Origin: Bacillota bacterium
GTDB lineage: Bacteria > Bacillota > Proteinivoracia > UBA4975
Length of the DNA stretch: 64,000 nt
Direction: 5' to 3'
Assembly: GCA_050949165.1 (NCBI GenBank)
Contig: JBMNFF010000001.1
Coordinates: forward strand, 1,622-65,621
A program made the translations under genes and the position numbers. The notes below the pieces were generated by a model. The model worked only from the letters and a program-made list of their open reading frames with translations. It searched no databases and was not told the DNA's origin. How positions within the stretch are numbered: position 1 is the stretch's first letter; every line of letters begins with the position of its first letter. Below, piece by piece: positions 11,767 through 62,523 of this stretch.

Positions 11767-11867
11767 TTTTTATCCTCCACTTCCTTGGCGGAGCAATGGG
11801 AAGGCCGGAAAATAAAAGAGCGCCCGACGAAAGTCCGACGCAAAAAGGCAAAGACCCTCCTCATGCC

Positions 11868-12048: not shown

Positions 12049-12117
12049 CCCTGGTGTGAGTGAGGTGTGCTATGTTGTTTTACTTTTTTAAACTACCACC
12101 GGCAGGAAAAGTTGTCA

Positions 12118-12513: not shown

Positions 12514-12545
12514 ATCCGGTTTGACGCCGGATTTATTTTTTTCCG
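12514..12545 (+). terminator. Rho-independent terminator AAATCCGG-TTTGACG-CCGGATTT followed by T7
   Basis: Seen directly in the sequence. Confidence 0.6.
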
Positions 12546-12656
12546 CCTGCTGCCAAGGACCGGGAAGACAGCAATAAATGGAAAGAAGCCGGCGGTCCCA
12601 ACTGGTAAAGTATGGATTAAGCAATGAGCTTTAACTAATTCATAGGAGTGGTCATA

Positions 12657-14291: not shown

Positions 14292-14294
14292 GCC

Positions 14295-25876: not shown

Positions 25877-26959
25877 TTGATGCTTAAAAAATTAACCGCA
25901 ATTGTTCTTGCAACAGTCCTGGTCTTTGCCCTGGCAGGTTGCCGGGGAGAGAGAACCGGGCAGGAAGAAGGCGGCGATTACAAGATCGGTATCATTACCG
26001 GGACGGTGTCCCAGGGTGAGGAAGAATTCCAGGCCGCCCAAAATATGGCCGCCAAATACGGCGACAAGATTGTAACTGCAACCTATCCGGATAATTTCGC
26101 CTCCGAAACCGAGACCGTCATCGCCCAGGTAGAGGCCTTGGCGGCCAACCCAGATGTCAAGGCCATCGTCTTTGTCCAGGCTGTCCCCGGCGCAGCCGCA
26201 GCCATCGACAAGGTGCGGGAAACCCGTCCCGACATGCTCTTCATCGCCGGCGTTGCCGCTGAGGACGGCTACCACGTCTGGCAGTTGATTGTAAACAAGC
26301 TGGCCCGGCGCCGCGCGGATTATGACCTGGCCAAGCCCCTGGTCTGCATCGGCCTGGCCGGCCTGGCCTTCGCAGCCACCTTCATCCCGGCGGTGGAGGA
26401 TATCCTCCTTTTCGTGCGGATTCCCGTGACCACCTACCTGGCCATTGCCGGCCTCTGCCTGTTCAACACCTGGCTGCTTCGCACCCGCCTGGGCCAGAAC
26501 ATGCGCACCGTCGGCCAGAGCCGCACCGTGGCCAATGCCGCAGGACTCAACGTCGACCGGATTCGCATCATCGCCATGATCCTCTCCACCGTCCTGGCCT
26601 GCTGGGGACAGCTCATCTATCTCCAGAACATCGGGACCTTCTCCACCTATGGCGCCCACACCCAGGTCGGCCAGTTCGCCATCGCCGCCCTCCTGGTGGG
26701 CGGGGCCTCGGTGCAAAGGGCCAATAACAAGCAGGCGGTGCTGGGGGTCATCCTCTTCCACACCTTGTTCATCGTCGCTCCCCAGGCCGGCAAGGAATTG
26801 TTCAACAACGCCCAGCTGGGCGAGTACTTCCGGGTCTTTGTGGCCTATGGTGTCATCGCCGTATCCCTGGCCATGCACGCATGGAAGACGGCAATTCGGC
26901 CCAAGCTGGGGGCAGCCGCGCCCATCAGTCAGGGTGGAGGCGGCAGTTGCTGCAGTTAA
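25877..26959 (+). pseudogene. Chimeric ORF: N-terminal ~140 aa of a DUF3798-type ABC-transporter lipoprotein fused in frame to the C-terminal half of a BMP/ribose-family ABC permease (deletion remnant)
   Basis: Lipobox LAGC plus DYKIGIITGTVSQGEEEF...IVTATYPDNF matches the DUF3798 N-terminus. From about residue 150 the sequence is permease (..RTRLGQNMRTVGQSRTVANAAGLNVDRIR.., TM helices). The rest of the binding protein, the ATPase and the first permease are absent. Confidence 0.6.
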
Positions 26960-27103: not shown

Positions 27104-28755
27104 TTGAGGAGCATGAGTAAGCCGGTGCCGCCTCTCCCAAAGAACCTGGAATTAGTGCTTAAGGTTTCACAGCCGAAGAAGGCCAAGCCTTTCCTTACCC
27201 GGAAGACAAAAAGGTTAGTAGCAATCCTTGCCCCCCTGCTGGTAGTTTTCCTATTTTTCCAGCTGATTCTCTATTCCACCCGGGATATCCTCTACTATCC
27301 CAGAGTCGGCCCCTATCCCGGCGGTTCCATCTTGTACAAAGGAGATATCGCCGACAACCTCCCCAACGGCCAGGGGAAATTCTTCACCAGGGCGGGTCGA
27401 CTCATTGCCCAGGGTTCTTTTAAAGACGGCAAATTGCACGGCTCTGCCATTTTTTACGGCGAAGGCGGCCGGATCTATGAAGGTCAATGGCAGGACGGCA
27501 AGCGAAGCGGCCAGGGAACCTTGACCGTCCACGGCGTCAAGGTTTACGAAGGGCAGTGGGCCAACGACAAGCTCAACGGTTACGGGAGCCTGCACACCGT
27601 AAACAGCACTTATCAGGGAGAGTGGAAGGACAATAAGCGAGAAGGTCAAGGCGTCCTCGCCATGAGGGGGCAGAGGTATGAAGGTGAATTCAGCGATGAC
27701 CTGTTCCACGGCCAGGGAACCTTGTTCATCGATGAAAGAAAAGTGTACCAGGGGCAATGGCACAGGGGCCTGCCCCACGGAGAAGGGACCCTGTTTGCCC
27801 CAGTAACGGCGATATTATCTTCAGCGGCCATTGGGATAGTGGTTTTATCGAAGATGGGGACTTGTTGGGTCTGGACCCGGAAACATGGGAGTTCTTAAAT
27901 CTCCATATCTACCAACGGGGACTGGCTGCGGACTCGACTTGCCTGGACTTTATCAGAATTACCCAGGCCCTGTTGGGTGAAGGCCTGGATCAGGTCCTGC
28001 GGCTGAAGGCCGTGATTGACTCGGCCAGCGATGACCCCACCTTTCGCGAATTAATGTACCGCTTGATTGAATTGCCCCAGGAGCCCTATGAAGACCAGGT
28101 AATCAGGGAATGCATCCGCGCCCTGGAAAACGTGCCCTTGCCGATACTGCGGGACATCGTCGCCATAGGCAGCTCCTGTAAATTTTTTCCCGGCCTGATC
28201 GATGTCCCCGGTTACGTGGCCAATCCGAAATATGCCGGCGTCTACTATATAGACAAAAGATATCTGGTCGTCAGTTTGGGCAAGGGGTTGCCGGACATCG
28301 TCACCTTGCATGAAGTCGGCCATGAAGTGGACATTGCCCTGCTGTACTATAGCTCCTACAAACAGTTCTATTCAATCTGGCAGGCAGAGGCTGCCAGTGC
28401 CTTTACTCGCGATTACTATGTCGAGAACCCTGGCGAGTACTTCGCCCAGTTCTTTGCAAATTTCTATGCCGATGAGGAGGTCGTGGCGGCAGGTATTGAC
28501 TACGGATATTTCCAGTACCGGCGCAAAGAGTTAAAGGAAGTCGCCCCCCGCACCTATGAGTTTTTCGAGCAGTACGTCGACGGCTATCAGGGGCGGAATT
28601 ATGTCCACGTCCTCAAGCCCAGCACCCCCGATGCCGCCAGCGCCCACATATCCCTTAAATTACCCCAGCCAATCCCCCCGCGGGATTTTCTGGACAGAAT
28701 GGTCTACGGCCTTCGCAGTCTTTTCCGCCCCCCCCAAACCGGTGGAGCCCCCTGA
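27104..28755 (+). pseudogene. Membrane-anchored MORN-repeat protein with a C-terminal ATLF-like (anthrax-lethal-factor/PPEP-type) zinc-metalloprotease domain; -1 frameshift at a C4 run near 27797
   Basis: N-terminal TM helix. About seven MORN repeats (YEGQW.DGK..GQG). HEVGHEVD (HExxH) plus downstream YFAQFFANFY..E. ORFs 27104..27898 and 27757..28755 join as GEGTLFAP|SNGDIIFSGHWDSGF if one C is added to 'gccccag'. Confidence 0.65.
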
Positions 28756-28820
28756 CGCCGATAGTCAGTGAACCCCTGCCCAGCAATCTTCACTGGGGGG
28801 CTGCCCGTCATATGAATAAC

Positions 28821-28848
28821 AGATGGGGCCATTTGGCCCCCTTTTACA
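28821..28848 (+). terminator. Terminator GGGGCCA-TTT-GGCCCCC followed by TTTT
   Basis: Seen in the sequence, between convergent genes. Confidence 0.5.
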
Positions 28849-28903
28849 GTGTTTTCACCAGGCGATTTGCCCCGATATTCCTTTTTGCACAACTTGTTCC
28901 TAT

Positions 28904-29695
28904 CTATTTTACATAGAGCTTGCCCACCAGCCAGTTCACGAAGCTGTTGGGCAGCAGTTTGTTGAGGAAGGCGAAGAGCTTGTACTTGGCGCCGATGGTA
29001 TATATGGGCTTGATCCGGGACCTCAGCGCCGTCCTGTACACCGCCCGGGCAACGACCTCGGGCGGGTAGCCGCTTTGCTCATCTCGCTCCATGACGGCCA
29101 CGCTGCGGGCGATTGCACCCCCGTAAACGTCATCCCCCGCCAGGGACTTGGCCCGGGCGCCGGTAAATTCTGTCTTGACATCTCCCAGTTGCAGGGCGCA
29201 GATACTGACTCCAAAGGGCTTCAGCTCGTTGGCCAGGGCATTGACCAGGATGTTCAGCGCCGCCTTGGTGGCGGAGTAGAAGGATTGGAAGGGGATGGCG
29301 AATATGGCTGCCGCCGAGGAGATGCAGATGATCCGCCCCCGGCTCTCCCGGAGCAGGGGGAGGGAGGCCTGAATGCAGCTCACCACCCCGAAGAAGTTGA
29401 CGTCGAACTGGCGCTTGGCCTCGGCCAGTTGGCTAAATTCCACCGCTCCCGAGATGCCGAAGCCGGCATTGTTGATCAGCAGGTCCAGGCGGCCAGCCTC
29501 AGCTTCTATCCGGGCAAAGGCCGCCCGCACCGCCCCTTCATCGGTGACATCCACGGCGATATCGGCAACCCCCGGTTCTCCGGCGGGCCGGCGGCTGAGA
29601 TTGTACACCCGCCACCCCTGATTGGCAAAGAGCTTGGCCGTGGCCCGGCCGATGCCGCTGGAGGCGCCGGTGATGGCAACTACCTTGGCGGTCAT
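28904..29695 (-). CDS. Classical short-chain dehydrogenase/reductase (3-ketoacyl/3-ketosphinganine-reductase-like)
   Basis: MTAKVVAITGASSGIGRATA (TGxxxGIG), NNAG, and the S..YSATKAAL catalytic triad. The start overlaps the upstream stop by 4 nt. Confidence 0.85.
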   Translation of the reverse strand: MTAKVVAITGASSGIGRATAKLFANQGWRVYNLSRRPAGEPGVADIAVDVTDEGAVRAAFARIEAEAGRLDLLINNAGFGISGAVEFSQLAEAKRQFDVNFFGVVSCIQASLPLLRESRGRIICISSAAAIFAIPFQSFYSATKAALNILVNALANELKPFGVSICALQLGDVKTEFTGARAKSLAGDDVYGGAIARSVAVMERDEQSGYPPEVVARAVYRTALRSRIKPIYTIGAKYKLFAFLNKLLPNSFVNWLVGKLYVK

Positions 29696-30873
29696 ACCAA
29701 TCCAGCTTCCTTGAGGACAGCCTCGATGATGTCCACCGCCTCGTCGATCAAGGCTTCGGTGTGGGTGGCCATGAGGCTTACCCGGAGCAGGCATTCACTG
29801 GGCGGCGTGGCCGGCGGCAGGACGGGGTTGACATAGACCCCGGCCTCGAACAGCTTCTTGTTCACCGTCAGGGTGGTGATCATGTCCTTGGTGTAGATGG
29901 GGATGATGGGAGTGGGGGACTCCTTGATCTTTATATTGCGGCTGTTGAGGGCCCGCTTCATGTAAGCGGCCAGCTGGCCCAGCCTGTCCACCCGCTGGGG
30001 TTCGGTGCGCATGATTTCCAGGGATTTGATGGCGGCGGCGCAGGATGCCGGGGTGATGGAGGCCGAGAAGATAAAGGGCCGGGACTTGTGCCGGACATAA
30101 TCCGCCACCACCCGAGAAGAGGCCATGAACCCGCCCAGGCTGGCCAGGGACTTGGAGAAGGTGCCCATGATGATATCCACTTCGTCTTCCAGCCCGAAGT
30201 AGGATGCGGTGCCCCGACCGCCGACGCCGATTACCCCCAAGCCGTGGGCGTCATCCACCATCAGCCGGGCCTTGTACTTCTTCTTCAATTCGACGATTTC
30301 CGGGAGCAGACAGATATCCCCGCTCATGCTGAAGACGCCGTCGGTGACGATGAGCTTGCCGGCATCTTCGGGGATGTTGGCCAGCACCCTTTCCAGATCG
30401 GCCATATCCGAGTGGTTAAAGCGCAAATGCTTGGCATAACTGAGCTTGCAGCCATCGTAGATGCTGGCGTGGTTCTCCTTGTCGGAGATGATATAGTCCC
30501 CCCGCCCGCACAGGGAACTGATGATGCCCAGGTTGGACTGAAAGCCGGTGGAAAAGGTGATTACTGCTTCGGCATGCAGAAACTCGGCCAAATCCCTTTC
30601 CAACTGGGTGTGCAGGTTGAGGGTGCCGTTGAGAAAGCGGGATCCAGAACAGCCGCTGCCGTATTTCCTGGTGGCGGCTATGGCGGCTTCCTTCACCCTT
30701 TCATCTGCCGTCAGGCCCAGGTAGTTATTGGAGCCCAACATTATCCTGCGCTTGCCCTCCATGATAACTTCCACATCCTGTTGGGACTGGAGCTCATGGA
30801 AATAGGGATATAACCCCAGGGCCTGTACTTCTTTAGCCTCGGTAAACTTCTCACACTTAGTAAATAAAGACAT
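29692..30873 (-). CDS. PLP-dependent alpha-oxoamine synthase (Spt/Kbl/BioF family acyl-CoA:amino-acid C-acyltransferase)
   Basis: 393 aa with SNNYLGL, the HASIYDG, DDAHG and GTFSKSLASLGGF (PLP-Lys) motifs. Co-transcribed with the SDR. Confidence 0.85.
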   Translation of the reverse strand: MSLFTKCEKFTEAKEVQALGLYPYFHELQSQQDVEVIMEGKRRIMLGSNNYLGLTADERVKEAAIAATRKYGSGCSGSRFLNGTLNLHTQLERDLAEFLHAEAVITFSTGFQSNLGIISSLCGRGDYIISDKENHASIYDGCKLSYAKHLRFNHSDMADLERVLANIPEDAGKLIVTDGVFSMSGDICLLPEIVELKKKYKARLMVDDAHGLGVIGVGGRGTASYFGLEDEVDIIMGTFSKSLASLGGFMASSRVVADYVRHKSRPFIFSASITPASCAAAIKSLEIMRTEPQRVDRLGQLAAYMKRALNSRNIKIKESPTPIIPIYTKDMITTLTVNKKLFEAGVYVNPVLPPATPPSECLLRVSLMATHTEALIDEAVDIIEAVLKEAGLV

Positions 30874-31229
30874 TATGATTCCACTCCTTTACCAAACCAA
30901 TAACAAGTGAGAGCGGGGACCAATGTCCTCGCCAAGCCAACCCTCCTTTACCTTGGATTGTATGGGATATATTGCGTATATTATATACTCAATCCCCGCT
31001 ATTTTCTAGGCCGATTTGCACCAATCTGCTGCCGGCCCGGGAACCCGGGGCCGGGTCCTCCGGCCCGTTGCCTGTTTCTCAATCTTCGTGTCCAATGAAG
31101 GGAATCCCCCAATATCTTGAAATATAGCAATATTAGACCATAAGAGAGCAAGATTCTTGAAGAAGTCTTCTCCTGGCGAAATTATAATTACCAGTAATGC
31201 AGTAATGCTTAATGCGAGGAGGCTTTATT

Positions 31230-31685
31230 TTGAAAAAAGTAATTTTCCTGTTCTTGCTTGCCCTGGTCCTGACCTCTGCCGGCTGCGGCTTCAAGAACAG
31301 GACCCCCTTAACAGCTGATGAGTTTGTCACCAAGATGGAAGCGGAAGGATTCACTTTGGTGGACGCTACCGATCAGTTCGAACCCGGTATAGTGGAGGCC
31401 GTGCAACTGGCCGTGGGTGAAGACTACCAGATTGAGTTCTACGTCGTTCCCACCGTCGAACAGGCCCAGCGGGCCTTTGAACAAAACAAGGCTGACTTTG
31501 AAGCTGCTCAGGGCAGCTCGTCCAGCCACAAATCCGTCGAAGTGAAAAACTACAGCTACTATTCCCAGACTTCAGCGGGTCTCTATGCTGTGGTGTCCCG
31601 AACAGACAACACCTTCATCTATGTTGTCGCCGATGCTGAATACAAGAAGGAGATCAACGAGATACTTTCCGATCTGGGATATTAA
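31230..31685 (+). CDS. Small lipoprotein, function unknown
   Basis: A TTG start after GAGGAGG gives (M)KKVIFLFLLALVLTSAGC (lipobox). Confidence 0.5.
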   Translation: MKKVIFLFLLALVLTSAGCGFKNRTPLTADEFVTKMEAEGFTLVDATDQFEPGIVEAVQLAVGEDYQIEFYVVPTVEQAQRAFEQNKADFEAAQGSSSSHKSVEVKNYSYYSQTSAGLYAVVSRTDNTFIYVVADAEYKKEINEILSDLGY

Positions 31686-31708
31686 ACAGTCCTCCCCCAT
31701 GGTAAGAC

Positions 31709-31737
31709 CGCCGGCTTGGGCCGGCGGTTGTTTTATA
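31709..31737 (+). terminator. Terminator ACCGCCGGC-TTGG-GCCGGCGGT followed by a T-rich tail
   Basis: Seen in the sequence. A second hairpin (AGACCTGC-CCC-TGCAGGTCT+TTTT) lies at about 31866-31893. Confidence 0.55.
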
Positions 31738-31965
31738 CCTCATCGCTTTGGATGTACAGAATCTGGTCGCAGCTGGCAGGGATATGCTGGTAAATCGCAG
31801 CGTGCGCTGCATGACTTCTTTGCCAACTCAGAGGTGGTAGGATGCCGCTAGTCCTGGGCCAACCTAATAAAGACCTGCCCCTGCAGGTCTTTTTATGATA
31901 CAGTAGAGAAGAAAAATTATCTGCTATCGGTGAAAATTATTGCCGGGGAACAAGGAGGATGCATA

Positions 31966-32415
31966 ATGAAGATCAATCTTACGAAAAAGCAGTACCAACT
32001 CCTGATGGAGAAGTGTTATATTGCCGACTGGGTAATCCACGCTTATCGGCGCCCTGAGGATGGTATCGGGGAAGACTACCTGGAACTGCAGCAGTATTTG
32101 CTGGGCTTTGCCAAAGACTTTGGCTATGAGGACAATGTCTCCCATATTCGGGAAAACGACAGATATGTCTGGGCAGAAGACTATTTGGAAAAGAATCCCG
32201 ACGCCGGGGAATACATACTCCACTACGACTTTAACAGATATGCCGATATCCTGTCCGACCGGCTGGCGGACATGGCCATCAAAGAGCGCTACTCCCCGGA
32301 AGAGCTGGAAGCGAAGGATCCCCAGGAACTCTCCAAGGAGTTTTATGAGCTTAAGCTCGAAGCTCTAAAGACCACTTCATTGCTCCACGGCAACCAGGGC
32401 GAGAAAGAAGAATAG
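31966..32415 (+). CDS. Hypothetical acidic cytoplasmic protein
   Basis: AGGAGG RBS before MKINLTKKQYQLL...; no recognisable domain. Confidence 0.4.
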   Translation: MKINLTKKQYQLLMEKCYIADWVIHAYRRPEDGIGEDYLELQQYLLGFAKDFGYEDNVSHIRENDRYVWAEDYLEKNPDAGEYILHYDFNRYADILSDRLADMAIKERYSPEELEAKDPQELSKEFYELKLEALKTTSLLHGNQGEKEE

Positions 32416-32602
32416 CAATAATAGTATTCAAGATGCCGGAATCTGCGAATTGCGTAACCCGGTATCTTTTTTTGTCAATGCGCGAAGCTATGTTTTGGTT
32501 GGAACGCAAAAGGCGCAATATTTATAATGTCTCAATTATCGGGGTTATGCTATTCTCATATTGGGTTGGTGGCAACCCCAATAATTGCTTGGAGGTCGAA
32601 TT

Positions 32603-33469
32603 ATGAAGAAAATTTTTTCGGCCATCTTGGTTTTGCTTATACTCATATGCTTCGCAGGCTGTGGAAGGAGTCCCGTTGAAATCCCAAGGGAGGATACAGA
32701 GGGAGAAAATCAATCTCCTGAACCTTCTCCAGAGCAAGTGTCCATAGCTGAGGAAGTCGTCATCGATGAACAGGGGATTCGCATCCAGATCGCCGCCCTT
32801 GAAGAAGCCAGGATGGGACCGGAACTGAAAGTGCAGATTGAGAATTCCTCAGAAGTGTCCGTAACTGTCCAGGTGAGAAAAACGTCAGTCAACGGATTTA
32901 TGATTGAACCGATCTTTTCCTGTGATGTGGCTCCGGGAAAGAAGGCTGTTGATGGCATATCCTTCTATGAAAGCGACATGGAAAGACACAATATTGAGGT
33001 CATCACCAACATTGAACTGGTCTTCCATGTCTTTAATGCCACCACCTGGGAAACTGTATTCAGATCCCAGCCGGTGCAAATTATTACAACAGCTGCAGAT
33101 AAGCACAGCCAAACCTATGATTCCGCAGGGGATGTATTAATCGAAAGCGCAGGAATAAAAATCGTCTTTCAGGGGTTGAGTGAAGATTATCTGGGTCCGG
33201 TGGCCAAGTTGTACATCGAGAACAATACCGACGAGTTTGTTTCCGTCCAAGCTAAAGATACTTCTGTAAATGGCTTTATGATCAGTCCCGTCTTTTCCTG
33301 TGAAATCACGCCGGGTAAAAAGGTCATTGACGGATTGTCATTCTACGAAGATGATATTGCTGAGCACGGCATCGACGCCATACAAGAAATCGAGCTGAGG
33401 TTCATCATCTTCAACCCCGATTCCTGGAAAACTATTTTAGAAACCGAATACATTACCATAACTCCATAA
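32603..33469 (+). CDS. Lipoprotein with two tandem ~100-aa beta-rich repeat domains (DUF4352-like)
   Basis: Lipobox ICFAGCG. Internal repeat ..VSVTVQVRKTSVNGFMIEPIFSCDVAPGKKAVDGISFYE.. and ..FVSVQAKDTSVNGFMISPVFSCEITPGKKVIDGLSFYE... Confidence 0.6.
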   Translation: MKKIFSAILVLLILICFAGCGRSPVEIPREDTEGENQSPEPSPEQVSIAEEVVIDEQGIRIQIAALEEARMGPELKVQIENSSEVSVTVQVRKTSVNGFMIEPIFSCDVAPGKKAVDGISFYESDMERHNIEVITNIELVFHVFNATTWETVFRSQPVQIITTAADKHSQTYDSAGDVLIESAGIKIVFQGLSEDYLGPVAKLYIENNTDEFVSVQAKDTSVNGFMISPVFSCEITPGKKVIDGLSFYEDDIAEHGIDAIQEIELRFIIFNPDSWKTILETEYITITP

Positions 33470-33472
33470 CCC

Positions 33473-34195
33473 TTAATACCCCACCCACATGACCGTTCCT
33501 CTTTCTGCGAAGCCCAGTTTCCTGGCCAGGCTCAATGACTTGTGATTGTCGGGCTCGATATGCACAAAGGCAGGTTTTCCCAATTCCTGCAGTTGCCTGG
33601 CGACAGCCACTGTCACATCCCGGGCATAGCCCCGTCCACGGTATTCTTCCCGCACAAAGAGGAACCCGATTGCCCCGTCATCGTGGGTTATGGCCCAGGC
33701 CACGGGCTCATCTCCGTGGAAAATTGCCGCTGAGTGTCCCCGGGCAATGCGGTCGCGGGTGTAGGCCAATGTGGTCAGCTCTGCATAAGGCCAGAGACGG
33801 TAGATGGCATCGGCATGCGCCGGCAGAAGCTTGACAGGAGTGGTTCCCGGTTGGGGCAGGGCGGCGCCCTGGGGGAGTTGGAGCCGCAAAGATGCCATCT
33901 GCCAATTTATCCGGCGGCCCCTGGCCAGGAGGGGAAGCATCCAGGCCTGGACCAGGGCGAAGTTTTTATCCTGATCGGTCAGAGACCCTGTCATTTCCAG
34001 CAGCTCATCCCTGTTCTCGCTCTTGATGTATACCCAGTCCCAATCGCTGGTTCCCTTGAAAAGCAGCGAGGACCCACAACGCAGGAGTTCGGTAATGGGA
34101 TTGTTCTCCAGGAAATTAATGTAGGCGATATTGCCCTCTATGTCCCGGGCCAGGAAATCGATGGCTTCATGCTTACTGAGATTTTCCATCCTCAT
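33473..34195 (-). CDS. GNAT-family N-acetyltransferase
   Basis: The C-terminal ...GFLFVREEYRGRGYARDV...SLSLARKLGF block is a GNAT motif A/B region. Confidence 0.75.
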   Translation of the reverse strand: MRMENLSKHEAIDFLARDIEGNIAYINFLENNPITELLRCGSSLLFKGTSDWDWVYIKSENRDELLEMTGSLTDQDKNFALVQAWMLPLLARGRRINWQMASLRLQLPQGAALPQPGTTPVKLLPAHADAIYRLWPYAELTTLAYTRDRIARGHSAAIFHGDEPVAWAITHDDGAIGFLFVREEYRGRGYARDVTVAVARQLQELGKPAFVHIEPDNHKSLSLARKLGFAERGTVMWVGY

Positions 34196-34625
34196 ACTTG
34201 GTCTTCACCTTCCTTAGGCCATTTACCCGTATTGCACCCAAGCGGGCAAGCTACCGAAAGCCCTTGCTATGCATGCTAATTCCACGTGCTGCAATTCAAT
34301 TCCTCCAATTTCCACAGTCGATGCACCGGATTATATGGAGGCTGTGGGGTTTGAGGCCTGGCTGACAAGGCAGATGTTGTGTTGGCCAGAATTTATAGGG
34401 AGCCTGTGCCTAGGCTCCTTTTTTCTGGAATGTAATCCATATCTGCAACATTTAGACAAATTGAGCAATCCGGAATTACCGGCAGGATAAATAAGTGTAA
34501 TTGTAGAATATTGTCAGCAACTCTATTTTCTGGGGGAAATCACATTATTCCCAACTTAATTCGCCCACGCTTCCACCCAGGGGCGCTGGGCCTTTATTAC
34601 CACATACTTTTCTAGGGGGGGTAAG

Positions 34626-36843: not shown

Positions 36844-36928
36844 CTTTTCCCACCACAGTCCATCACTGCAGACTGATCGCCTGGTAAAGAAGGCAAAAGC
36901 CGATGTGCGGTTCCCCGCATCGGCTTTT
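36822..36928. repeat. Copy A of a ~105-bp duplicated module (gene 3' end + palindromic terminator AAAAGCCGATG-N12-CATCGGCTTTT)
   Basis: Near-identical to 42882..42996: AGTATTGCC-TAGCTTT-CCCACCA-AGTCCAT ... AGAAGG-AAAAGCCGATG-GCGGTTCCCCGC-ATCGGCTTTT. Confidence 0.7.
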
Positions 36929-36979
36929 GCTTTTCATTATGCTCAGGATAAGCCAGGATTTTCTTTTTACCACCGTTTT

Positions 36980-38170: not shown

Positions 38171-38622
38171 TGCTTTGCCCCCTTTGCCCATTCTATTGGA
38201 ATTATATCAGAGTTATTGTGCACCATGCACAATAAAACCAGCTTTTTTTGTGTTTACTTATCTTGTAAAGGTTTAAAGGCTTAAATTAAAATTTAAAGTA
38301 ACAATATTGTAATATTAGAGTAAGAATATTGCCAAACCTGGTCAGTGTGCTTGGACTTTTGCTGGAGAATTGAGCCAGTTGAAGGGAGGTATGGACTGAA
38401 TGGCCTGCTTACCACACGGCATAGTCTAGCACACCAAACCGCCCAACTTCTTTTGCCATTGTAGGAAAGATTTTGTATAGCTGCATGCCATGCAGGAGGT
38501 TCCAGTGCTCAAAGATGTTAGCGGTGGGCACCAAGTTGCTTGCTTTTTATTTGACTAATAGAAGAAAAGCCTTCTGTAAATTAATTACAGGCGAAAGACC
38601 TCATTACTGAAAGGGGCAAGCT

Positions 38623-39831: not shown

Positions 39832-39886
39832 GTGCATTAGTGCACTCCAGTAAAGCATTAAGCAAGATAACATAACATGAGATAGA

Positions 39887-50049: not shown

Positions 50050-51395
50050 TTGTCTGTAAAAGTGGATCCTTAATTTAAAGGGCCATCGCCCTCTGGTAAA
50101 ATGGAAGTGTCAGAAACAACCAATTACTGGAGGGATTGCGATGACCCGTATTAATCTTACCTTATCCGAGGAAACTTTGCACCACCTAATTTCCGGGGAT
50201 GATAAAGGAATTTCTATGTTGCTGAGAGAGGCCCTGAACCAGATTCTAGAGCACCAAAGGACTGAGCAGATTGAGGCTGCCCGTTATGAGCGAACCGAAA
50301 CTCGTCGGGGTTTGCGGAACGGCTACAAGCCTAGAAAACTTAACACCCGGGTAGGGACCCTAAACCTTCGGGTTCCCCAAATACGGGATGGCGTTTTTTC
50401 TACCGAGCTGTTTAGAAGATACCAGCGTAGTGAGCAGGCTCTAGTGCTTGCCCTTATGGAAATGGTGGTTAATGGGGTATCTACCCGTAAGGTGGCAAGA
50501 ATCACCGAGGAGCTATGTGGAACTGAGTTCTCAGCTTCAACTGTGTCTAGCTTATGCAAGCAATTAGACCCCATCGTGGAGGGGTGGAAAAACCGCAGCT
50601 TGGCTGGACAAGCCTTCCCCTTTGTCCTGGTGGATGCCCTCGTCATAAAGCTTAGGGATAATGGCCGAGTTCGTCCTCATAGTACTATGTTGGCAATCGG
50701 GATAAACGCCGAGGGCAACAGAGAGATTTTGGGGTTTCAAGTAGGAGACAGTGAGTCAGAGTCCAGCTGGACAGACTTTTTTAATTCCCTAAAAAACCGA
50801 GGTCTATCTGGGATAGACCTGGTTGTCTCCGATGACCACAGAGGGCTTGTAAACGCCGTACAGACCTGTTTCCAGGGGGTAACCTGGCAAAGGTGCCAAA
50901 CTCACTTTACCAAGAACATACTGGATAAATGCCCAAAATCATTACAGGCTGAATTGAAAGCCAGGCTCCGTACAGTATTTGAGGCGAACGACACCGAAAC
51001 GGCACGGAAGTTGGCCAAGGGTATTCACGAAGAATATGCTGATAAAGCCGCTAGGGCTGTAGAGACTCTGGACCAGGGGTTTGAGGATGCCATTGCGGTG
51101 CTGGCACTACCTGAGTACTATCGGCGAAAACTAAGGACCACCAACAGCGTGGAGCGGCTCAACGAAGAGATCCGCCGCAGGGAAAGGGTCATAAGGATAT
51201 TTCCAAATCCTGAATCGGCAGTAAGGCTGATAGGAGCGGTACTGATGGAACACCATGAGGAGTGGAGCGAAGGACGACGATACTTTGACATGAGCTCGTA
51301 CTGGTCTTGGAAAAAAGAGCAAGAATCAGCCGGTAAAAACGATTGCCGGATAAGTGCATAGATACAGTTTTGCCAGAGGCAATTTTACAGACAAA
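50050..51395 (+). mobile_element. IS256-family insertion sequence (~1.35 kb)
   Basis: Imperfect terminal inverted repeats TTGTCTGTAAAAGTGG (left) and GCAATTTTACAGACAA (right) flank the transposase gene. No clean target-site duplication was seen. Confidence 0.7.
50141..51361 (+). CDS. IS256-family (mutator-type) transposase
   Basis: 406 aa with the D...D...E core (..VLVDALVIKLR.., SDDHRGL, ..NSVERLNEEIRRR..). Confidence 0.92.
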   Translation: MTRINLTLSEETLHHLISGDDKGISMLLREALNQILEHQRTEQIEAARYERTETRRGLRNGYKPRKLNTRVGTLNLRVPQIRDGVFSTELFRRYQRSEQALVLALMEMVVNGVSTRKVARITEELCGTEFSASTVSSLCKQLDPIVEGWKNRSLAGQAFPFVLVDALVIKLRDNGRVRPHSTMLAIGINAEGNREILGFQVGDSESESSWTDFFNSLKNRGLSGIDLVVSDDHRGLVNAVQTCFQGVTWQRCQTHFTKNILDKCPKSLQAELKARLRTVFEANDTETARKLAKGIHEEYADKAARAVETLDQGFEDAIAVLALPEYYRRKLRTTNSVERLNEEIRRRERVIRIFPNPESAVRLIGAVLMEHHEEWSEGRRYFDMSSYWSWKKEQESAGKNDCRISA

Positions 51396-53329: not shown

Positions 53330-53463
53330 GCATGATAGGTTCCCCGGAAATTGCAAAGTAAAATTCCCTGTTTTTGCAGATAGAGAAGGCCATTGCAGCA
53401 GCCCCATAGAAACCTACCCTTGTAACGCCAATCACGAGGGAGGTAATTAGGAGGATGCTGACA

Positions 53464-54984
53464 ATGGCGCAAATTAATTGTATCAGAGAAATGTACTTTG
53501 AGAAAGGCATGAATTATGCCAGCATAGCAAGAGCCACAGGACATGATGTAAAGACAGTTAAGAAATACATCAACATGAAAGACTTTACTCAACCGCTTCC
53601 CAAACCAGCTAAAAAACGCGGGTCTAAGTTGGACAAGTATAAAGAGGAGATAGATAGCTGGTTGGAAGCAGATAAGCAGGCCCGCAAGAAACAGCGCCAC
53701 ACTGCGCGCAGAGTCTTCGATCGGCTGGCTGGAATTTATGGTCCTGAATTCAACTGTTCTTACCGGCTGGTCGCTGCGTATGTAGCAGAACGTAAGAAGG
53801 CGCTATACAGTCAGGAAACCCAATTTTTTATGCCTCTGGAACATATCCCGGGAGAGGCGCAAGTAGACTTTGGCGAAGCAGATTTTTATGAGGGCAATGA
53901 ACTCTGCAACGGCTATTACTTGAATCTCTCTTTCCCCAATAGCAATGGCGGTTACCTGCAGCTGTTCAAAGGGCAGAACATGCAATGCCTGGCCGAAGGG
54001 CTGATGAACATCTTTGCCCACTTGGGCGGCGTACCAACCAGGCTCTGGTTCGATAACCTTTCTCCAGCAGTAAAGAAAATCCTGAAAAACCATGGGCGGG
54101 AACTGACAGATTCGTTCCTGCGTTTCAAGAATCACTACGGATTTATTGCTGCGTTTTGCAACCCCGAGAGCGGTCATGAAAAAGGCAATGTGGAGAACAA
54201 AGTGGGCTACCATCGGCGCAATCTGTTGGTGCCCATCCCCCGGATAGATGACCTAAGAGCATTTAATCGCCAACTGCTTGAGAAATGCGATCGAGATATG
54301 CAAAGGCCACATTACAAGAAGGCGCTGCTGATTCAAGAGCTGTTCTTTGAGGACCGAAAAGCGCTGCTGCCACTGCCCGCTGTCCCCTATGATGAATCCG
54401 AGATTAAGAAGGTGCGCACTAACAGTTACGCTAAGTTCACATTAAATGATGGGAAGCACACTTACTCCACCGCTCCCCGTTACGCCAACAGCGAAGTATT
54501 CGTAAGGTTGACCGCTCATGACGTCATTGTTCTGGACGAGAGCTACAGGGAGGCAATTAGGCACCCCCGCCTCTACGGTAAAGAGAACAAGGAATCCATG
54601 GACTGGCTGCCATATTTGGCCCAACTGGCCCGCCGACCTGCGGCCCTAAAATACACCGGTATCTATCCCATGCTCCCTGAACCTATACAGGATTTCCTGG
54701 ACAACTGCGACTACTCGAGCAAGAAGGAAGCCTTGACAGTCTTGGCCAAGCTCAGCGAGGCAAGTGGGTTTAACAAGGCTACTGAAGCCTTCTTGACGGC
54801 CTTGGAACACGGTGTAAGCGATGCCGACAGCATCATAGCTATGTTTAGTCGACTTAACTGCGAAGTCCTAGACCTGGATCCCCTAATCCTGCCGGCCAGT
54901 GTTCCCGACATGCCCCAAGTACAAGCTAACGTAGCTGAATATGACCGCTTGTTCTTGAGTGAAGGTGGTATTCATGAAAGCTGA
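53464..54984 (+). CDS. istA: IS21-family transposase IstA
   Basis: N-terminal HTH (MAQINCIREMYFEKGMNYASIARATGHDVKTVKKY) plus the DDE core. Confidence 0.92.
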   Translation: MAQINCIREMYFEKGMNYASIARATGHDVKTVKKYINMKDFTQPLPKPAKKRGSKLDKYKEEIDSWLEADKQARKKQRHTARRVFDRLAGIYGPEFNCSYRLVAAYVAERKKALYSQETQFFMPLEHIPGEAQVDFGEADFYEGNELCNGYYLNLSFPNSNGGYLQLFKGQNMQCLAEGLMNIFAHLGGVPTRLWFDNLSPAVKKILKNHGRELTDSFLRFKNHYGFIAAFCNPESGHEKGNVENKVGYHRRNLLVPIPRIDDLRAFNRQLLEKCDRDMQRPHYKKALLIQELFFEDRKALLPLPAVPYDESEIKKVRTNSYAKFTLNDGKHTYSTAPRYANSEVFVRLTAHDVIVLDESYREAIRHPRLYGKENKESMDWLPYLAQLARRPAALKYTGIYPMLPEPIQDFLDNCDYSSKKEALTVLAKLSEASGFNKATEAFLTALEHGVSDADSIIAMFSRLNCEVLDLDPLILPASVPDMPQVQANVAEYDRLFLSEGGIHES

Positions 54985-55702
54985 AATTGCTGAGTGCTGC
55001 CGCCGCCTTCGCTTAAGCAAGAACATAGCAGAAATCTCCGACCAAGTTGAAGCTGACAGCTACCAGGAGTACCTGCTTAAGGTCCTGAAGCAAGAGGTTG
55101 CATACAGGGAAACAACCCGCAAGAACCGTCTGGTAAAACAAGCTGGTTTCTACAACTTGAAAACCTTTGATGGTTACAGCTTTGACGAAATTCGGTTGCC
55201 AACAGAGCTCTCAATTGCCGATTTAAAAGAAGTGAACTTCGTCAGGCAACAGAAGAACCTCATCTTCTACGGCAATGTAGGCACCGGCAAGACCCACCTC
55301 GCCACGGCCATAGGGATTGAAGCATGCAATAGAGGTCTATCTGTTCGGTTCTTCCGCACAGCAGCCCTGGTCAACCAACTCAGCGATGCACAGAAAAAAG
55401 GCGAGCTCAATAAACTTCTGAAACAATTAGCAAAGGCTGATCTGTTAATCTGCGATGAATGGGGATATGTCCCCCTGGACCGAGACGGTTCCAAGCTCTT
55501 GTTCCAGGTAATTTCAGACCGCTACGAGCAAAGGAGTGTGATCATCACTACCAATCTTGAATTTAGCAAGTGGGTAAACATTTTCTATGATGAGCAGATG
55601 ACGGCTGCCATGATCGACCGCTTAGTTCACCACAGCTACCTGCTATTATTCGATGGACAGAGTTACCGGATTAGGAAATCATTGATGAAAGGCTACGCAT
55701 AA
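54959..55702 (+). CDS. istB: IS21-family helper ATPase IstB
   Basis: NLIFYGNVGTGKTHLA (Walker A) and DEWGY (Walker B). Overlaps istA. Confidence 0.92.
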   Translation: MKVVFMKAEIAECCRRLRLSKNIAEISDQVEADSYQEYLLKVLKQEVAYRETTRKNRLVKQAGFYNLKTFDGYSFDEIRLPTELSIADLKEVNFVRQQKNLIFYGNVGTGKTHLATAIGIEACNRGLSVRFFRTAALVNQLSDAQKKGELNKLLKQLAKADLLICDEWGYVPLDRDGSKLLFQVISDRYEQRSVIITTNLEFSKWVNIFYDEQMTAAMIDRLVHHSYLLLFDGQSYRIRKSLMKGYA

Positions 55703-55776
55703 ATTCCCTGGCGGGGTTGTTGCAAGGGAAGTTTGCAAACACAGGGAAAAAGAGCTTGCAAAAAACAACTATTTGA

Positions 55777-56613
55777 TTGTCCTGGAGGTAATCATAGTAC
55801 TCTCCCTCAGTTTCAAATTCCATGGGGCTGTGAAACTGCTTATAGTAGGAGAGGAAATAGGTTAACAGTATGTCCCTATATTTTTGCTCTTTACTTAGGG
55901 CTGTAAATTGCTCCTCGACAAACTGAGTTAAATCTATGTTGGTTACGGTAGGCTGTTTCCCTTCGACCTGGGCGATAATTTCTTTACCCAGTTTGTGAAA
56001 GGTCATGGCGTCAATATCTTTGCCAGTCTCTTTCTTGATCCGCTCAGACATTTCTGCAGCCGAGGCATTGGTGAAGGACAAAACCAGCAGTTCATTGGGC
56101 TGGTAGGAATATCTATCTAACAGATATTTGACCTTGCCGACTATGGTCGTGGTCTTGCCACTACCGGCGCCGGCTATGACGAGATTGTTTATTTCATCCT
56201 TAATTATGCATTCCCTCTGTTGGTTATCCAGTGACCTTCCTTCGATATTAGCGAAGAGGGCGTCATAACGCTTTTTTTCCCTGGATCGCGTTGTATTTTT
56301 TGCAGATATCATTCAGGGTGGCGCATGTTTGTTTAAACTGGTCAATCTTGAGTTTGTTTCCCGGGGGTAGTTTGCGATACCGCCTGGTTTTTCTGATTCT
56401 TTCCTTCAACTCATGGACCGAGGATTTCCAGTCTGCTATGTTTTGTTGATCCATATACCTGGAATAGTCCATAATGCGGCCCAGTGCCTCGAGGGCATCT
56501 CGGCATTCCATGGCAATCTCATCCCAGGAACGAATTAGGTCGAGCTTTCGCTGTTTTCTTTTTTGTTTATAGGTGCTGTACCAGGAGGCAATTCTTCTGA
56601 ACAATATACCCAC
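55777..56613 (-). pseudogene. N-terminal part of a HelD/UvrD-like SF1 helicase gene, frameshifted at an A7 run (~56285) and truncated by the right end of IS21
   Basis: ORF 56263..56613 (N-terminal coiled region) joins ORF 55671..56312 (..NNLVIAGAGSGKTTTIVGKVKYLL.. Walker A/Ia) if A7 is read as A6. The coding sequence stops at the IS21 boundary. Confidence 0.6.
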
Positions 56614-57112: not shown

Positions 57113-58933
57113 GTGGCAAGCACATTCAAGTCCAATGACGTACCTATCGCTGAGATTTTAAAGCAGATTGCGAAAGGGGAGACCCAGCTTCCAGATTTTC
57201 AACGGGGATGGGTATGGGATGAGGAGCGGATTATTGCTCTTATTGCCAGCATTTCTAATTCATATCCCGTAGGGGCTTTAATGTTCTTAGAGTATGGTGG
57301 GGATTCGGTCAGGTTTCACTACCGTAAATTTACGGGGGTAAAAGTGGATAATACTATCCCCAATATTTTAGTATTGGATGGCCAGCAGCGTCTCACATCG
57401 ATTTACAGTGCGATGTATTCCAGGGATGCGGTTGTCACTCGTACAGATAAAAACAAAGAAATTCAAAGGTTTTTTTATCTTGATATCGAAAAATGCCTGG
57501 ATACTTCCACTGATCGCGTTGATGCTATTATTTCAGTTCCGGAGGATAAAATAATCCGGTCAAATTTCGGGCGAGTTATCGATCTAGACGTAAGCACCAG
57601 GGATAAGGAGTTTGAAAACCACCTGTTTCCGCTGAATATAGTATTTGACTTCATTGAATGTGCTAAATGGCAGAATGAGTACCAGAAATATCACGGGTAC
57701 TCGCCTGAAATATTGGATCGCTATGCGAGATTTAATGCTGAGATACTGGTGCCAATCCAGACTTATAATGTTCCTGTCATAACTTTGGGTAGGGGGACCC
57801 CTAAGGAAGCAGTGTGCCAAGTTTTCGAGAACGTTAATACCGGCGGGGTATCCTTGACAGTGTTTGAACTAGTAACTGCTATGTTTGCAGCAGATGATTT
57901 TCGGCTGAGGGATGACTGGGAAGAAAGAAAGGAACGCCTTGTTAATGAATCTGCGCTTTCAGTTTCCAACCTGGATGCAGCCGTATTATCTGTAGTGTCA
58001 CCCACTGATTTCCTTGTGGCGGCTACCTTGCTTTCCAGATACTACATCAAAGCTCAGGGTGGAGAAGCCGTTAGTTGTAAGAAGAAGGACGTCCTGCGCC
58101 TCACGCTTGGTGAATATAAGAACTATAAAGAGCAACTAACTAACGGTTTTATCCAAGCTGCCAGTTTCCTTAAGGAGCAACGCATTTTTTCTGCAAGGGA
58201 TTTACCATACAGCACACAGTTAATTCCCCTGGCAGTTATATTTACCATTCTGGGCAAGCAGGCTCATGATGTTTTTATTAAAGATAAGATTGCCCGTTGG
58301 TACTGGTGCGGCGTATTGGGCGAGATGTACGGTGGCGCCAACGAAACCAGGTATGCCACTGATGTGACTGGTATGATGGATTGGATAAATGGCGGCGAGG
58401 AACCGGATACAATTCAAAGAGCATATTTCCAGCCCACCCGGTTGCTTACCTTGCAGACCAGGCTCAGCGCAGCATATAAGGGGATAATGGCTCTGATTTT
58501 AAAAACAGGATGCTTGGATTTCATTAGCGGCAGCGCTATGGACTTCACTGTTTTCCTTGATGAAAGCACTGATATTCATCATATATTCCCGAGAGCATAT
58601 TGCGAGAGCGTTGGGCTACCGAGATCGAGGTGGAATTCGATTGTTAATAAAACGCCGTTGTTCGCGAGGACTAATAGAATTATCGGGGGCAGTGCTCCCA
58701 GTGAATACTTGAAAAAAATTGAGAGAGATGGGCGTATCACTAAGGAGCAGCTAGACGATTATGTCGCTTCGCATCTTATCGACGTGTCATGCCTAAGGGA
58801 AGACGATTTTGACACTTACTTTATTAAACGGGCAAAAGCGCTTTTGAAAGAAATCAGCTGCGCCATGGGCAAACCCATTGCCAATTTAGGTGGGGATGAT
58901 GTAATAATCGGCTTTGGCAGCTCCTTGGAGTAG
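57113..58933 (+). CDS. GmrSD-like type IV (modification-dependent) restriction endonuclease: N-terminal DUF262 (ParB/Srx-like NTPase, DGQQR) plus C-terminal DUF1524 (His-Me finger)
   Basis: VLDGQQRLTSIY in the N-terminal half and DIHHIFPRAYC in the C-terminal half. GTG start after GGGGAGGGAG. Confidence 0.8.
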   Translation: MASTFKSNDVPIAEILKQIAKGETQLPDFQRGWVWDEERIIALIASISNSYPVGALMFLEYGGDSVRFHYRKFTGVKVDNTIPNILVLDGQQRLTSIYSAMYSRDAVVTRTDKNKEIQRFFYLDIEKCLDTSTDRVDAIISVPEDKIIRSNFGRVIDLDVSTRDKEFENHLFPLNIVFDFIECAKWQNEYQKYHGYSPEILDRYARFNAEILVPIQTYNVPVITLGRGTPKEAVCQVFENVNTGGVSLTVFELVTAMFAADDFRLRDDWEERKERLVNESALSVSNLDAAVLSVVSPTDFLVAATLLSRYYIKAQGGEAVSCKKKDVLRLTLGEYKNYKEQLTNGFIQAASFLKEQRIFSARDLPYSTQLIPLAVIFTILGKQAHDVFIKDKIARWYWCGVLGEMYGGANETRYATDVTGMMDWINGGEEPDTIQRAYFQPTRLLTLQTRLSAAYKGIMALILKTGCLDFISGSAMDFTVFLDESTDIHHIFPRAYCESVGLPRSRWNSIVNKTPLFARTNRIIGGSAPSEYLKKIERDGRITKEQLDDYVASHLIDVSCLREDDFDTYFIKRAKALLKEISCAMGKPIANLGGDDVIIGFGSSLE

Positions 58934-60561: not shown

Positions 60562-62523
60562 ATGTCCCATCTGAAGATATGGCAGCAAGCTCAGAAAAAG
60601 GTGGAAGAAACCGTTGCCAGAGTGAAGTCATTCCTTGACAGCTTTTCCCGGGAGCGGGAAGAGTTGCAGCAGCGGATTGCCAAATATCGTGAGGACGTAA
60701 AGAATGCGGACAGCAAGGACAGGCAGTTCATGTTGTCCGACCTTTTATGCTGGAAGAAGAGGCCCGCCTGGGCAGACGCATTGAGGATATGAGCACCGGC
60801 CTGTTCAGCCCCTATTTCAGCAAAGTCGTTTCCGATGAGGCTATTTACATATCCAAGTACTTTTCGGACCCAGATCATAACCTGGTCAAATTTACATCGC
60901 CCGTCGCCGTCCTCAGATACAAAGACGTGGAACAAGTTGGCTATGTCAACGGCATAGCCCACAAAATCAAGGAGAAGCAGATTGTAGACATCGAGGAGGG
61001 TACCCTGAGGCGTTTGGAGCACGCCGAGGCCGACACCGTTTTTGTTTACGATTGCAACAGGGTAACCTTTCTCCACAAGCGGCCTGGGGAGCTGCCGGTG
61101 AGCAAGGCCAGTTTGGCCGCCCCGCAGCCGGAGAGCGCTGAGGCGGCCGAGCCCAAGAAATATGTGCTGGGCGAGATTATCGCGAAAATGCGGGAAGAGC
61201 AGGACCGCATCATGCGGGCGCCCTACCAGGGGGTGACCCTGGTCAAGGGGGCAGCAGGTTCCGGCAAGACCAACATTGCCTTCCACCGCATTGTTTACCT
61301 GCTCAGCGAGCATCCCAAGGAGTTCCGGCAACAGGCCATCGCAGTATTTTGTTACAACGTGGCTTTGAAGAAGTATTTGAGCAACATGCTCATCGAGCTG
61401 AATATCCCGCGGGTTCAGGTCTTCAGCATCGACGAGTGGCTTTACTCCATCCTCCGGAAGGTCACCAACATTAGCTGGCTAAATTACGATGAAGATACCT
61501 GGACCAAGATTGTCAAGACGCGCAAAGAAGTCCTGCCGATCTTGGACGTTTTTTACGCTGAGTACAAACCCCAGCTCCTCAAGACGATAACCGTGGAAGA
61601 GGTTGGCGAGGACAGCCTTCTGCGCATCGACGGGCTATGGATTCTCAATTTGCTCTATACCTACCGGCCCTTCTTAGAGCATATCAGCTGGCATGATTCC
61701 GGCGGCCCGGTCCGCTATGAGCCGGGGGAAAGGGTGGACCATTCAGATCAGTTTCTCCTTGCCTGGCTAATTCAGAAGCTGGCTCAAGACAGGAATCTCA
61801 ATGTCTTTGGCTATTACGACCACGTGGTGGTGGATGAGGTCCAGGACCTGATGCCCGTCCAGCTTGCCCTGCTGGACACCCTACACAACAATTCCATGAC
61901 CCTGGTGGGGGATGTGAGTCAAAGGATTTTCGCCCTGGGCGTGGACAGCTGGGACCAGCTCCCCGTTACCATCAATAGCACCTATGAACTTACTATGTGC
62001 CATCGGTCCACCCTGCAGACCCATCCTCTTTGCCAACGAACTGCTGGCAGACAAAGGGGACAATATATATTCAACAAAGGTGGGGAAACAAGGGGAAAAG
62101 CCGTGTCTCTTCAGGGCTGCAAACCGTACCGATGCCCTGGACAAGGTTGTTCAGTATGTAAAGGAAATCAAGGGGCGGGAACCCCTGGCCTCGGTGGCGG
62201 TCCTCAACTTCCGTAACAGGGATTTGAATTGGATTAATGACAACCTCTGGAAAGCGGGCATTGACAGCTACATTGCCACCAAAGGCGACTGGGAGTTTTC
62301 GCCCCGGGTGGCGGTTACCACGTATCACCAGGTCAAGGGTTTGGAATTTGACTACATCTTCATCCTGGGGCTTAACGATTACCAGCAGTTAAAAATCTCC
62401 AACATGGACAAGGTTATCTACACTGCGGTGACCCGGGCCCAGAAGCGGGTGTACATTGCTTATTGGCGGCACCTCCCGGATATCCTCAAAAAAGCGGACC
62501 CGGAGCTATATGTCCGGGTCTGA
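60562..62523 (+). pseudogene. UvrD/HelD-like SF1 helicase with a ~230-aa N-terminal extension; two frameshifts (T4 run ~60745; C3 run ~62010)
   Basis: AAGGGAGG RBS plus the ATG giving MSHLKIWQQ. Frames rejoin as ..FMLSDLL|(F)MLEEEARL.. and ..CHRSTLQT|ILFANELL.. (motif IV NYRST..IL.AAN). Motifs KGAAGSGKT, VVVDEVQDL and YHQVKGLEFDYIFILGL. Same subfamily as the 44527 helicase. Confidence 0.65.

Follow-up and report, generated by a model that had tools for sequence, protein, structure and literature searches.

The DNA analyzed here (hereafter, the window) is a 64,000-nucleotide (nt) stretch from a Bacillota bacterium (GTDB lineage Bacteria; Bacillota; Proteinivoracia; UBA4975), covering positions 1,622 to 65,621 of contig JBMNFF010000001.1 (assembly GCA_050949165.1). 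Its minus strand carries a pair of genes, the upstream one encoding a pyridoxal 5'-phosphate (PLP)-dependent alpha-oxoamine synthase (AOS) and the one directly 3' of it, on the same strand, a classical short-chain dehydrogenase/reductase (SDR). Sequence, structure models, and gene context support reading the pair as serine palmitoyltransferase (SPT, gene spt) plus 3-ketodihydrosphingosine reductase (KdsR). We consider there to be a fairly good chance that this is a compact spt-kdsR operon that would yield a sphinganine-type base from L-serine and a long-chain acyl thioester. The host group, which is not known for sphingolipids, thus probably makes a sphinganine-like long-chain amino-alcohol. 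A first-pass annotation of the window had proposed this enzymatic logic, together with Kbl-type and CqsA-like alternatives, and it is favored by what follows: the NCBIfam models for Spt and KdsR rank first for their respective proteins, and the closest known structure by sequence is a bacterial SPT.

The AOS open reading frame (ORF; 29692..30873, minus strand) carries IIMGTFSKSLASLGG. The SDR is housed in a longer ORF (28904..29794, minus strand) in which the SDR domain begins at Met34, the 34th codon (MTAKVVAITGASSGIGR). The junction of the two genes reads ...GGATTGGTATGACCGCC, where the ATG that starts the SDR (29695-29693) and the TGA that ends the AOS (29694-29692) are merged in an ATGA, a 4-nt overlap. 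Because this overlap places the SDR start, we take the SDR coding sequence to be 28904..29695 (263 aa); the SDR appears to be translationally coupled to the AOS through it. Pfam identifies Aminotran_1_2 on the AOS (E 3e-56) and adh_short on the SDR (E 2e-43), and the overlapping AOS (with its GTFSKS motif) and classical SDR described by the first-pass annotation are therefore seen in the ORFs, the domain matches, and the junction alike. With a ribosome-binding site and a promoter-like site upstream and a GC-rich hairpin downstream (Table 1), the pair has the look of a self-contained unit. The promoter-like site, found by consensus scan with 10 of 12 positions matched, is a pattern match only. 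The hairpin is a possible terminator, a call that is only suggestive, given that the count of such sites is not above shuffled expectation. No riboswitch, T-box, or other RNA element was found in an Rfam scan of 28500-31400 at permissive thresholds. GC content around the operon is ~0.58.

The top NCBIfam family of the AOS is NF047600, serine palmitoyltransferase of the CFB group (i.e., the Bacteroidota type), at 553 bits. It leads the family list by 146 bits, with a beta-proteobacterial Spt model next (407 bits), then a Kbl-related model (386 bits) and, well down the list, ALAS (241 bits); the AOS sits outside the curated Bacteroidota clade. When all PDB sequences are compared, the closest solved structure is the SPT of Sphingobacterium multivorum (SmSPT, 3A2B/8GUH; 430 bits), ahead of Sphingomonas SPTs (~285 bits), a Thermus BioF/Kbl that has the top non-SPT score (274 bits), Kbl (230-248 bits), and BioF (180-205 bits). 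Identity is 51% to SmSPT over the full length, 39-40% to Sphingomonas SPTs, 35% to Escherichia coli Kbl, and 30% to E. coli BioF. Because SmSPT is itself only 37% identical to Sphingomonas SPT, the AOS falls well within the range spanned by true SPTs. An AlphaFold (AF2) model of the AOS (predicted local distance difference test [pLDDT] 87) superposes best on 8GUH (TM-score 0.95, root-mean-square deviation 2.0, 51% identity), and its identity to the Alistipes cysteate acyl-ACP transferase is 31-32%. In a neighbor-joining tree with a small reference set (three SPTs, E. coli Kbl, and E. coli BioF), the Clostridial AOS clade is sister to SmSPT with a bootstrap of 100; outside this pair come the Sphingomonas SPTs and then Kbl, and BioF forms the outgroup. 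The phylogenetic placement that the first-pass annotation had put forward as a check thus puts the AOS beside SmSPT, and firm clustering with Kbl or BioF was not observed. We conclude that it is a probable Bacteroidota-type serine palmitoyltransferase homolog, predicted to be a serine (long-chain acyl) transferase.

The automatic names given by JGI and NCBI say something else, namely “8-amino-7-oxononanoate synthase,” which would make the AOS a BioF of biotin synthesis and the SDR an unrelated neighbor. The BioF model TIGR00858 does give 385 bits. However, this is below its cutoff of 426 bits, the E. coli BioF motif is of the GTFGKG type rather than GTFSKS at 30% overall identity, and biotin synthesis has no place for the SDR whose coupling to the AOS is conserved. 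In addition, none of the biotin genes bioA, bioB, bioD, and bioW occurs in the window or the related loci. We regard a BioF function as very improbable. Still less credible is a CqsA/LqsA-like autoinducer synthase that would make an alpha-hydroxyketone or amino-ketone signal (the first-pass annotation had allowed for a CqsA-like enzyme): such enzymes share the AOS superfamily, but CqsA is the weakest AOS match (NF005526, 204 bits against a cutoff of 428; 107 bits to CqsA structures), and no CqsS-type sensor kinase gene adjoins the pair.

The residues of the active site can be compared with those of SmSPT, for which a structural paper names the PLP, serine carboxylate/hydroxyl, and acyl-wall residues and describes GTFSKS as the SPT-characteristic motif (PMC10196870). 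The alignment used here comprised the window AOS and 15 Clostridial homologs (16 sequences), three SPTs taken from the PDB alignments, and E. coli Kbl and BioF. The GTFSKS motif, with Lys241, is present in the window AOS and invariant across the 16 Clostridial sequences. Also kept in the window AOS are nearly all of the residues so named, in SmSPT numbering Asn52, Tyr54, Gly80-Ser81, Phe83, His138, Ser185, Asp210, Ala212, His213, Thr241, Ser243, Lys244, Ser245, Phe272, Ala274, and Tyr27/Phe28, and the residues described for SmSPT are invariant in 16/16 Clostridial sequences, except for one Tyr24-to-Phe substitution. Arg364, which aligns with SmSPT Arg367 and is presumably the carboxylate-binding arginine of SPT, is invariant in the Clostridial sequences. 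Whereas the PLP-binding residues are common to the Clostridial AOS and to E. coli Kbl and BioF, one or both of the E. coli enzymes deviate at Gly80-Ser81, Ala212, Ser243, Ser245, Ala274, and Tyr27/Phe28, and likewise at Phe83. Residues of the substrate site, which the first-pass annotation had suggested examining in a structure model, are in this alignment of the SPT type at the positions where Kbl and BioF differ. The Clostridial family has two fixed differences from SmSPT, both near the substrate (Ala79 to Ser76 and Ser53 to Asn50).

These residues also bear on the Kbl alternative, in which the AOS would be a Kbl-type glycine C-acetyltransferase and the SDR a threonine 3-dehydrogenase, the pair serving threonine/glycine metabolism. 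The E. coli kbl-tdh operon has the same gene order (the AOS gene, then the dehydrogenase gene), and Kbl models still reach 296-386 bits. But the scores fall under the cutoffs (381 vs. 460 bits for Kbl, 296 vs. 493 bits for another Kbl model), the former being 170 bits under the Spt model, and E. coli Kbl, at 35% identity, has Ser-Val at Gly80-Ser81, GTLGKA in place of GTFSKS, Asn at Ala274, and Glu-Glu at Tyr27/Phe28. The Clostridial proteins carry the SPT residues at all four of these sites. Furthermore, the partner is a classical NADP-type SDR, neither an extended-SDR TDH nor the zinc-dependent medium-chain dehydrogenase/reductase (MDR) that is E. coli Tdh, which works in the oxidative direction with NAD+. 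The 64-kb window contains no threonine dehydrogenase gene and no sensor-kinase gene. A Kbl/threonine dehydrogenase pair accordingly has very little to recommend it in our view, on a par with BioF.

The SDR is best matched in NCBIfam by NF049977, 3-ketodihydrosphingosine reductase KdsR (219 bits, E 7e-65, an end-to-end match), which ranks first of the 214 SDR families that match. The same model is first in 9/10 AOS-adjacent SDRs of other Clostridia, at 190-306 bits. NF049977 is named for the same activity as BT_0972, whose KdsR activity has been established experimentally in Bacteroides (PMC9278070). Judged through this family model, what the SDR shares with KdsR is the classical SDR type, a length of ~265 aa, the Gly motif, and the catalytic Ser-Tyr-Lys residues. 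In the window SDR, the motifs are TGASSGIG (residues 9-16), NNAG (75-78), Ser127, and Tyr140-x3-Lys144, all invariant or nearly so in 30 homologs. Strand beta2 ends without an acidic residue and is followed by Ser34-Arg35-Arg36 (Arg35 being invariant among the 30 homologs), and under established SDR coenzyme rules this would be an NADP(H) signature. The best structural matches of the SDR model (pLDDT 93) are NADP enzymes, led by human 17beta-HSD1, an NADP-dependent reductase of lipophilic ketones (TM-score 0.91). For both proteins, the fold searches bore out the folds and did not discriminate beyond the sequence evidence. The SDR is predicted to be an NADPH-dependent 3-keto reductase, KdsR-like, an assignment that is softer than that of the AOS. 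A search with the most KdsR-like Clostridial SDR returned only unnamed Clostridial SDRs and no named Bacteroidota KdsR sequence. The window SDR was also searched exhaustively against 1.84 billion representatives, and families were read for the 150 nearest (50%-identity representatives). Among the nearest are relatives of ~560-610 aa with two matched stretches each, which look like tandem double-SDR fusions (P0482, P0488, P0517, P0529, P0538, P0546, P0554, P0588, and P0592).

The pair is not confined to one genome. The exact AOS is present on 20 contigs, and there are at least 587 AOS relatives among GTDB species representatives (one genome per species). We counted loci for the best 80 of these (63-84% identical). 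Nearly all of the 80 carriers are labeled as Clostridia or Bacillota metagenome-assembled genomes (MAGs), a few only as “bacterium,” and gut, rumen, and digester Oscillospiraceae, Christensenellales, and Lachnospiraceae are among them. In 58/80 species loci, the AOS is followed immediately, on the same strand, by an orthologous SDR (44-72% identical); in four more, the SDR lies upstream or is divergently oriented. This adjacency in 58 of 80 species genomes, amid flanking genes that are otherwise unrelated, goes far beyond chance. When flanking ORFs were clustered from 81 loci (the 80 species loci and one of four identical-strain loci), no conserved neighbor other than the SDR emerged; a MarR-type gene recurs in six loci. 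The same overlapping AOS-SDR pair is found in a cultured isolate, Christensenella sp. MSJ-20 (CP076563.1).

Some variation in arrangement was encountered. In some Clostridiaceae/Acetivibrionales loci, an SDR subfamily of 277 aa is encoded upstream of the AOS or divergently from it, sometimes with two SDRs (e.g., L063, 8925-9752, minus strand; L073, 1013-2692; L083, 129-1793), and the SDR of L063 scores 306 bits on the KdsR model, above the window SDR. In contig L002, from a near-identical strain, the operon SDR is split in two (7777-8564; a 146-aa call, with tblastn matches at 7777-8139 and 8199-8564), either as a pseudogene or through an assembly error. In other loci (L093-L096; gene at 4001-4780 or 4001-4924), SDR homologs stand directly after rplU-prp-rpmA with no AOS nearby. 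Homologs in this position are very abundant (50-60% identical; one cluster has 1352 members), and because of them, we consider the AOS-SDR coupling to be frequent but not obligatory.

From the classes of the two enzymes and the conservation of their pairing, it follows that an amino-ketone would be made and then reduced. The AOS would form an external aldimine between PLP and L-serine, and decarboxylative condensation of this aldimine with a long-chain acyl thioester (acyl-CoA or acyl-ACP, where ACP is acyl carrier protein) would give a 3-keto long-chain base of the 3-ketodihydrosphingosine type. The coupled SDR would then reduce the labile 3-keto group with NADPH, to a sphinganine-like 2-amino-1,3-diol. 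This product might stay as the free base, or another locus might supply an enzyme to N-acylate it; we allow for both because a known ceramide synthase gene is not linked. In this scheme, we infer the substrates (serine, plus the length and carrier of the acyl chain), the cofactor, and both the product and what becomes of it.

Compared with known systems, the closest likeness is to Bacteroidota SPT (SmSPT; Bacteroides BT_0870 type; NF047600). Both are AOS enzymes of the soluble homodimer type of ~395 aa that share GTFSKS and the PLP-, serine-, and acyl-site residues, and Bacteroidota SPT is the best family and the sister group in our small tree. The hosts differ, in that the window host is a monoderm, Gram-positive Clostridium of gut or digester origin whereas the Bacteroidota are diderm. 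The gene arrangement also differs, because in Bacteroides thetaiotaomicron the locus tags BT_0870 and BT_0972 are well separated, whereas here the spt-like gene is coupled to the reductase gene. What is new is probably the spt-kdsR-like operon in an unexpected phylum; Bacteroidota Spt and BT_0972-type KdsR, the closest relatives, are already known. The Caulobacter/Sphingomonas-type bacterial ceramide pathway, reportedly described by Stankeviciute et al. in 2022, has its first step likewise performed by an Spt-family AOS. As cited in PMC11087976, PMC10865984, and PMC12134224, it consists of Spt, ACP, bCerS, and CerR. In Caulobacter, N-acylation of 3-ketodihydrosphingosine comes first, and CerR acts afterward to reduce the resulting keto-ceramide (PMC10865984). 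In contrast, a classical SDR is here directly coupled to Spt, as in the eukaryote/Bacteroides route, ACP, bCerS, and CerR are not linked, and the AOS is only 39-40% identical to the alpha-proteobacterial SPTs.

A number of results weigh against the spt-kdsR interpretation. Neither protein reaches the curated threshold of its best family (553 bits vs. an equivalog cutoff of 640 for the AOS on NF047600; 219 vs. 400 bits for the SDR on NF049977). Because these equivalog thresholds are failed, the two are best described as probable new members in a new phylum, not as established orthologs. For the SDR, the margin over generic subfamilies is small (PRK06179, the runner-up, has 191 bits), and in one AOS-linked homolog the KdsR/PRK06179 ranking is reversed. 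Its 150 nearest representatives include three bona fide KdsRs (best E 1.6e-128) alongside strong matches to PRK06182 (n=8), PRK06914 (n=6), and PRK06179 (n=5), which are uncharacterized subfamilies, and this mixed neighborhood lowers our confidence in the SDR label taken alone. The first-pass suggestion that the SDR is a KdsR therefore holds as regards the top-ranked model, and is weakened by the cutoff and by these generic relatives. As for gene context, 18/80 AOS loci have no SDR within 10 kb (in two of the 18 the contig stops within 400 bases of the AOS); these loci are flanked by unrelated genes, e.g., EamA, diaminopimelate (DAP) dehydrogenase, and radical SAM. Conversely, some close SDR homologs do not adjoin an AOS. 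No gene for ACP, ceramide synthase, CerR, or another lipid function was found in the 64-kb window, and none for lipid metabolism is conserved near the AOS in the related loci. Finally, amino-acid and acyl specificity of an AOS are not readable with certainty from sequence, and a full-text literature search, the coverage of which was incomplete, found no Spt or sphingolipids in Clostridia.

Several of these points fit a reading in which the chemistry is the same but the substrates are not. The amino acid might be glycine, alanine, or threonine instead of serine, or the acyl chain might be short or of medium length. We give this reading a small but appreciable probability. It would make the product a 1-deoxy-type or otherwise non-canonical base, a secondary metabolite, or a signal, and not a precursor of sphingolipids. 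In its favor, Firmicutes often have small pools of long-chain acyl-CoA. The AOS and SDR scores under the equivalog cutoffs, the two near-substrate replacements (Ala79 to Ser76, Ser53 to Asn50), and the lack of a linked ceramide synthase gene in the window and related loci also count for it. In addition, SPTs take alanine and glycine at low efficiency (PMC10196870). On the other hand, the network that holds the serine hydroxyl and carboxylate is kept (Asn52, Gly80, Ser81, Ser243, and His138, with Arg364 by alignment), as are Tyr27 and Phe83 of the acyl wall, and the 51% identity to a true SPT exceeds the 37% between SmSPT and Sphingomonas SPT. Serine and a long acyl chain thus remain our preferred substrates for the AOS.

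A sulfonolipid-type pathway, in which the AOS would be a cysteate acyltransferase (SulA/CapB-like) and the SDR would reduce 3-dehydrocapnine to capnine, is improbable. Sulfonolipid synthesis likewise uses an SDR reductase, and cysteate acyltransferases are SPT-related AOS enzymes that are found among the PDB matches (7U7H and 28EH). They score only 217-223 bits at 31-32% identity, however, as against 430 bits and 51% for SPT, and a cysteate synthase gene is neither present in the window nor conserved near the related loci.

Within the window, the neighbors of the operon are unrelated to it; they encode an ATLF-like protease, an RlpA-like protein, a GNAT, hypothetical lipoproteins, and what is left of an ABC gene. 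The GNAT was considered as a ceramide synthase and rejected, in that it has only a weak NCBIfam match, to AAC(2'), and is not conserved beside the operon. An AMP-binding/FabH pair that occurs in a related JGI contig is missing from the window, and the window departs from that contig beyond ~53 kb. To the left of the operon, ~4.1 kb are absent relative to L002, a 99.6%-identical metagenome contig in which this interval (11201-15322) encodes ABC permeases; a chimeric ORF spans the junction (Table 1), and the gap looks like a strain-level deletion. Close by, a MORN-repeat ORF and an ATLF-like ORF (for an anthrax lethal-factor-type metalloprotease) overlap in different frames. Because the two correspond to a single 546-aa gene in contig L004, the window copy is probably frameshifted or misassembled. 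Directly to the right of the operon, GC content falls from ~0.58 to 0.45-0.52 (31000-40000), and mobile and defense genes are found further right (50000-62500).

Table 1. Features of the operon and of its surroundings in the window (window coordinates)
Feature	Coordinates	Strand	Details
spt-like gene, PLP-dependent AOS	29692..30873	-	393 aa; Schiff-base Lys241 in GTFSKS motif
kdsR-like gene, classical SDR	28904..29695	-	263 aa
Ribosome-binding site AAGGAG	30884..30889	-	10 nt upstream of AOS ATG; read from sequence
Promoter-like site	30980..31008	-	TAGAAA, 17-nt spacer, TATAAT; ~107 nt upstream of AOS start codon
GC-rich hairpin, possible terminator	28825..28840	-	GGGGCC-AAAT-GGCCCC; 64 nt 3' of SDR stop codon; weak T tract
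Chimeric ORF	25877..26959		DUF3798 lipoprotein N terminus and BPD_transp_2 permease C terminus; junction near 26259-26274
MORN-repeat ORF	27104..27898	+	
ATLF-like ORF	27757..28755	+	
GNAT	33473..34195		
Transposase_mut	50141..51361		
IS21-like IstA/IstB	53455..55702		
UvrD helicase fragment	55671..56312	-	
GmrSD-type endonuclease	57113..58933		
UvrD helicase fragment	60747..62523	+	

The enzymology proposed here is ordinary; it is the taxonomy that is notable. The reviews and surveys consulted list Gram-negative sphingolipid producers and a few Actinobacteria, and Clostridia are not mentioned in them. We found no prior report, although there may be an earlier mention of a Clostridial Spt. The first-pass annotation had called such a pair unusual in a Firmicute, which holds in so far as no report on Clostridia was found; with relatives in hundreds of species, however, it is not a rarity of this genome. 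Automatic pipelines at present name the AOS gene “BioF” or “aminotransferase” and its partner “SDR oxidoreductase.” Whether monoderm Clostridia (including lineages widespread in gut, rumen, and digesters, e.g., Oscillospiraceae and Christensenellales) make sphingoid bases, and possibly sphingolipids, de novo via an spt-kdsR operon is, in our judgment, evenly balanced. Cultured Christensenella sp. MSJ-20, as a carrier of the operon, makes a direct test of the hypothesis possible.

The sphingolipids that Bacteroidota make in the gut act on the immunity and lipid metabolism of the host (PMC9278070, PMC10865984). A gut lipidomics preprint could not account for abundant labeled sphingolipids because E. 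coli and B. thetaiotaomicron were the only organisms in which it detected Spt. A conserved Spt-like/KdsR-like operon in hundreds of Clostridia species would be an overlooked candidate source of gut sphingolipids. The operon would also offer independent genomic-context support for a KdsR-first route in bacteria, with reduction before N-acylation. If the interpretation is correct, the Bacteroidota would not be the sole gut bacterial source of host-active sphingoid lipids.

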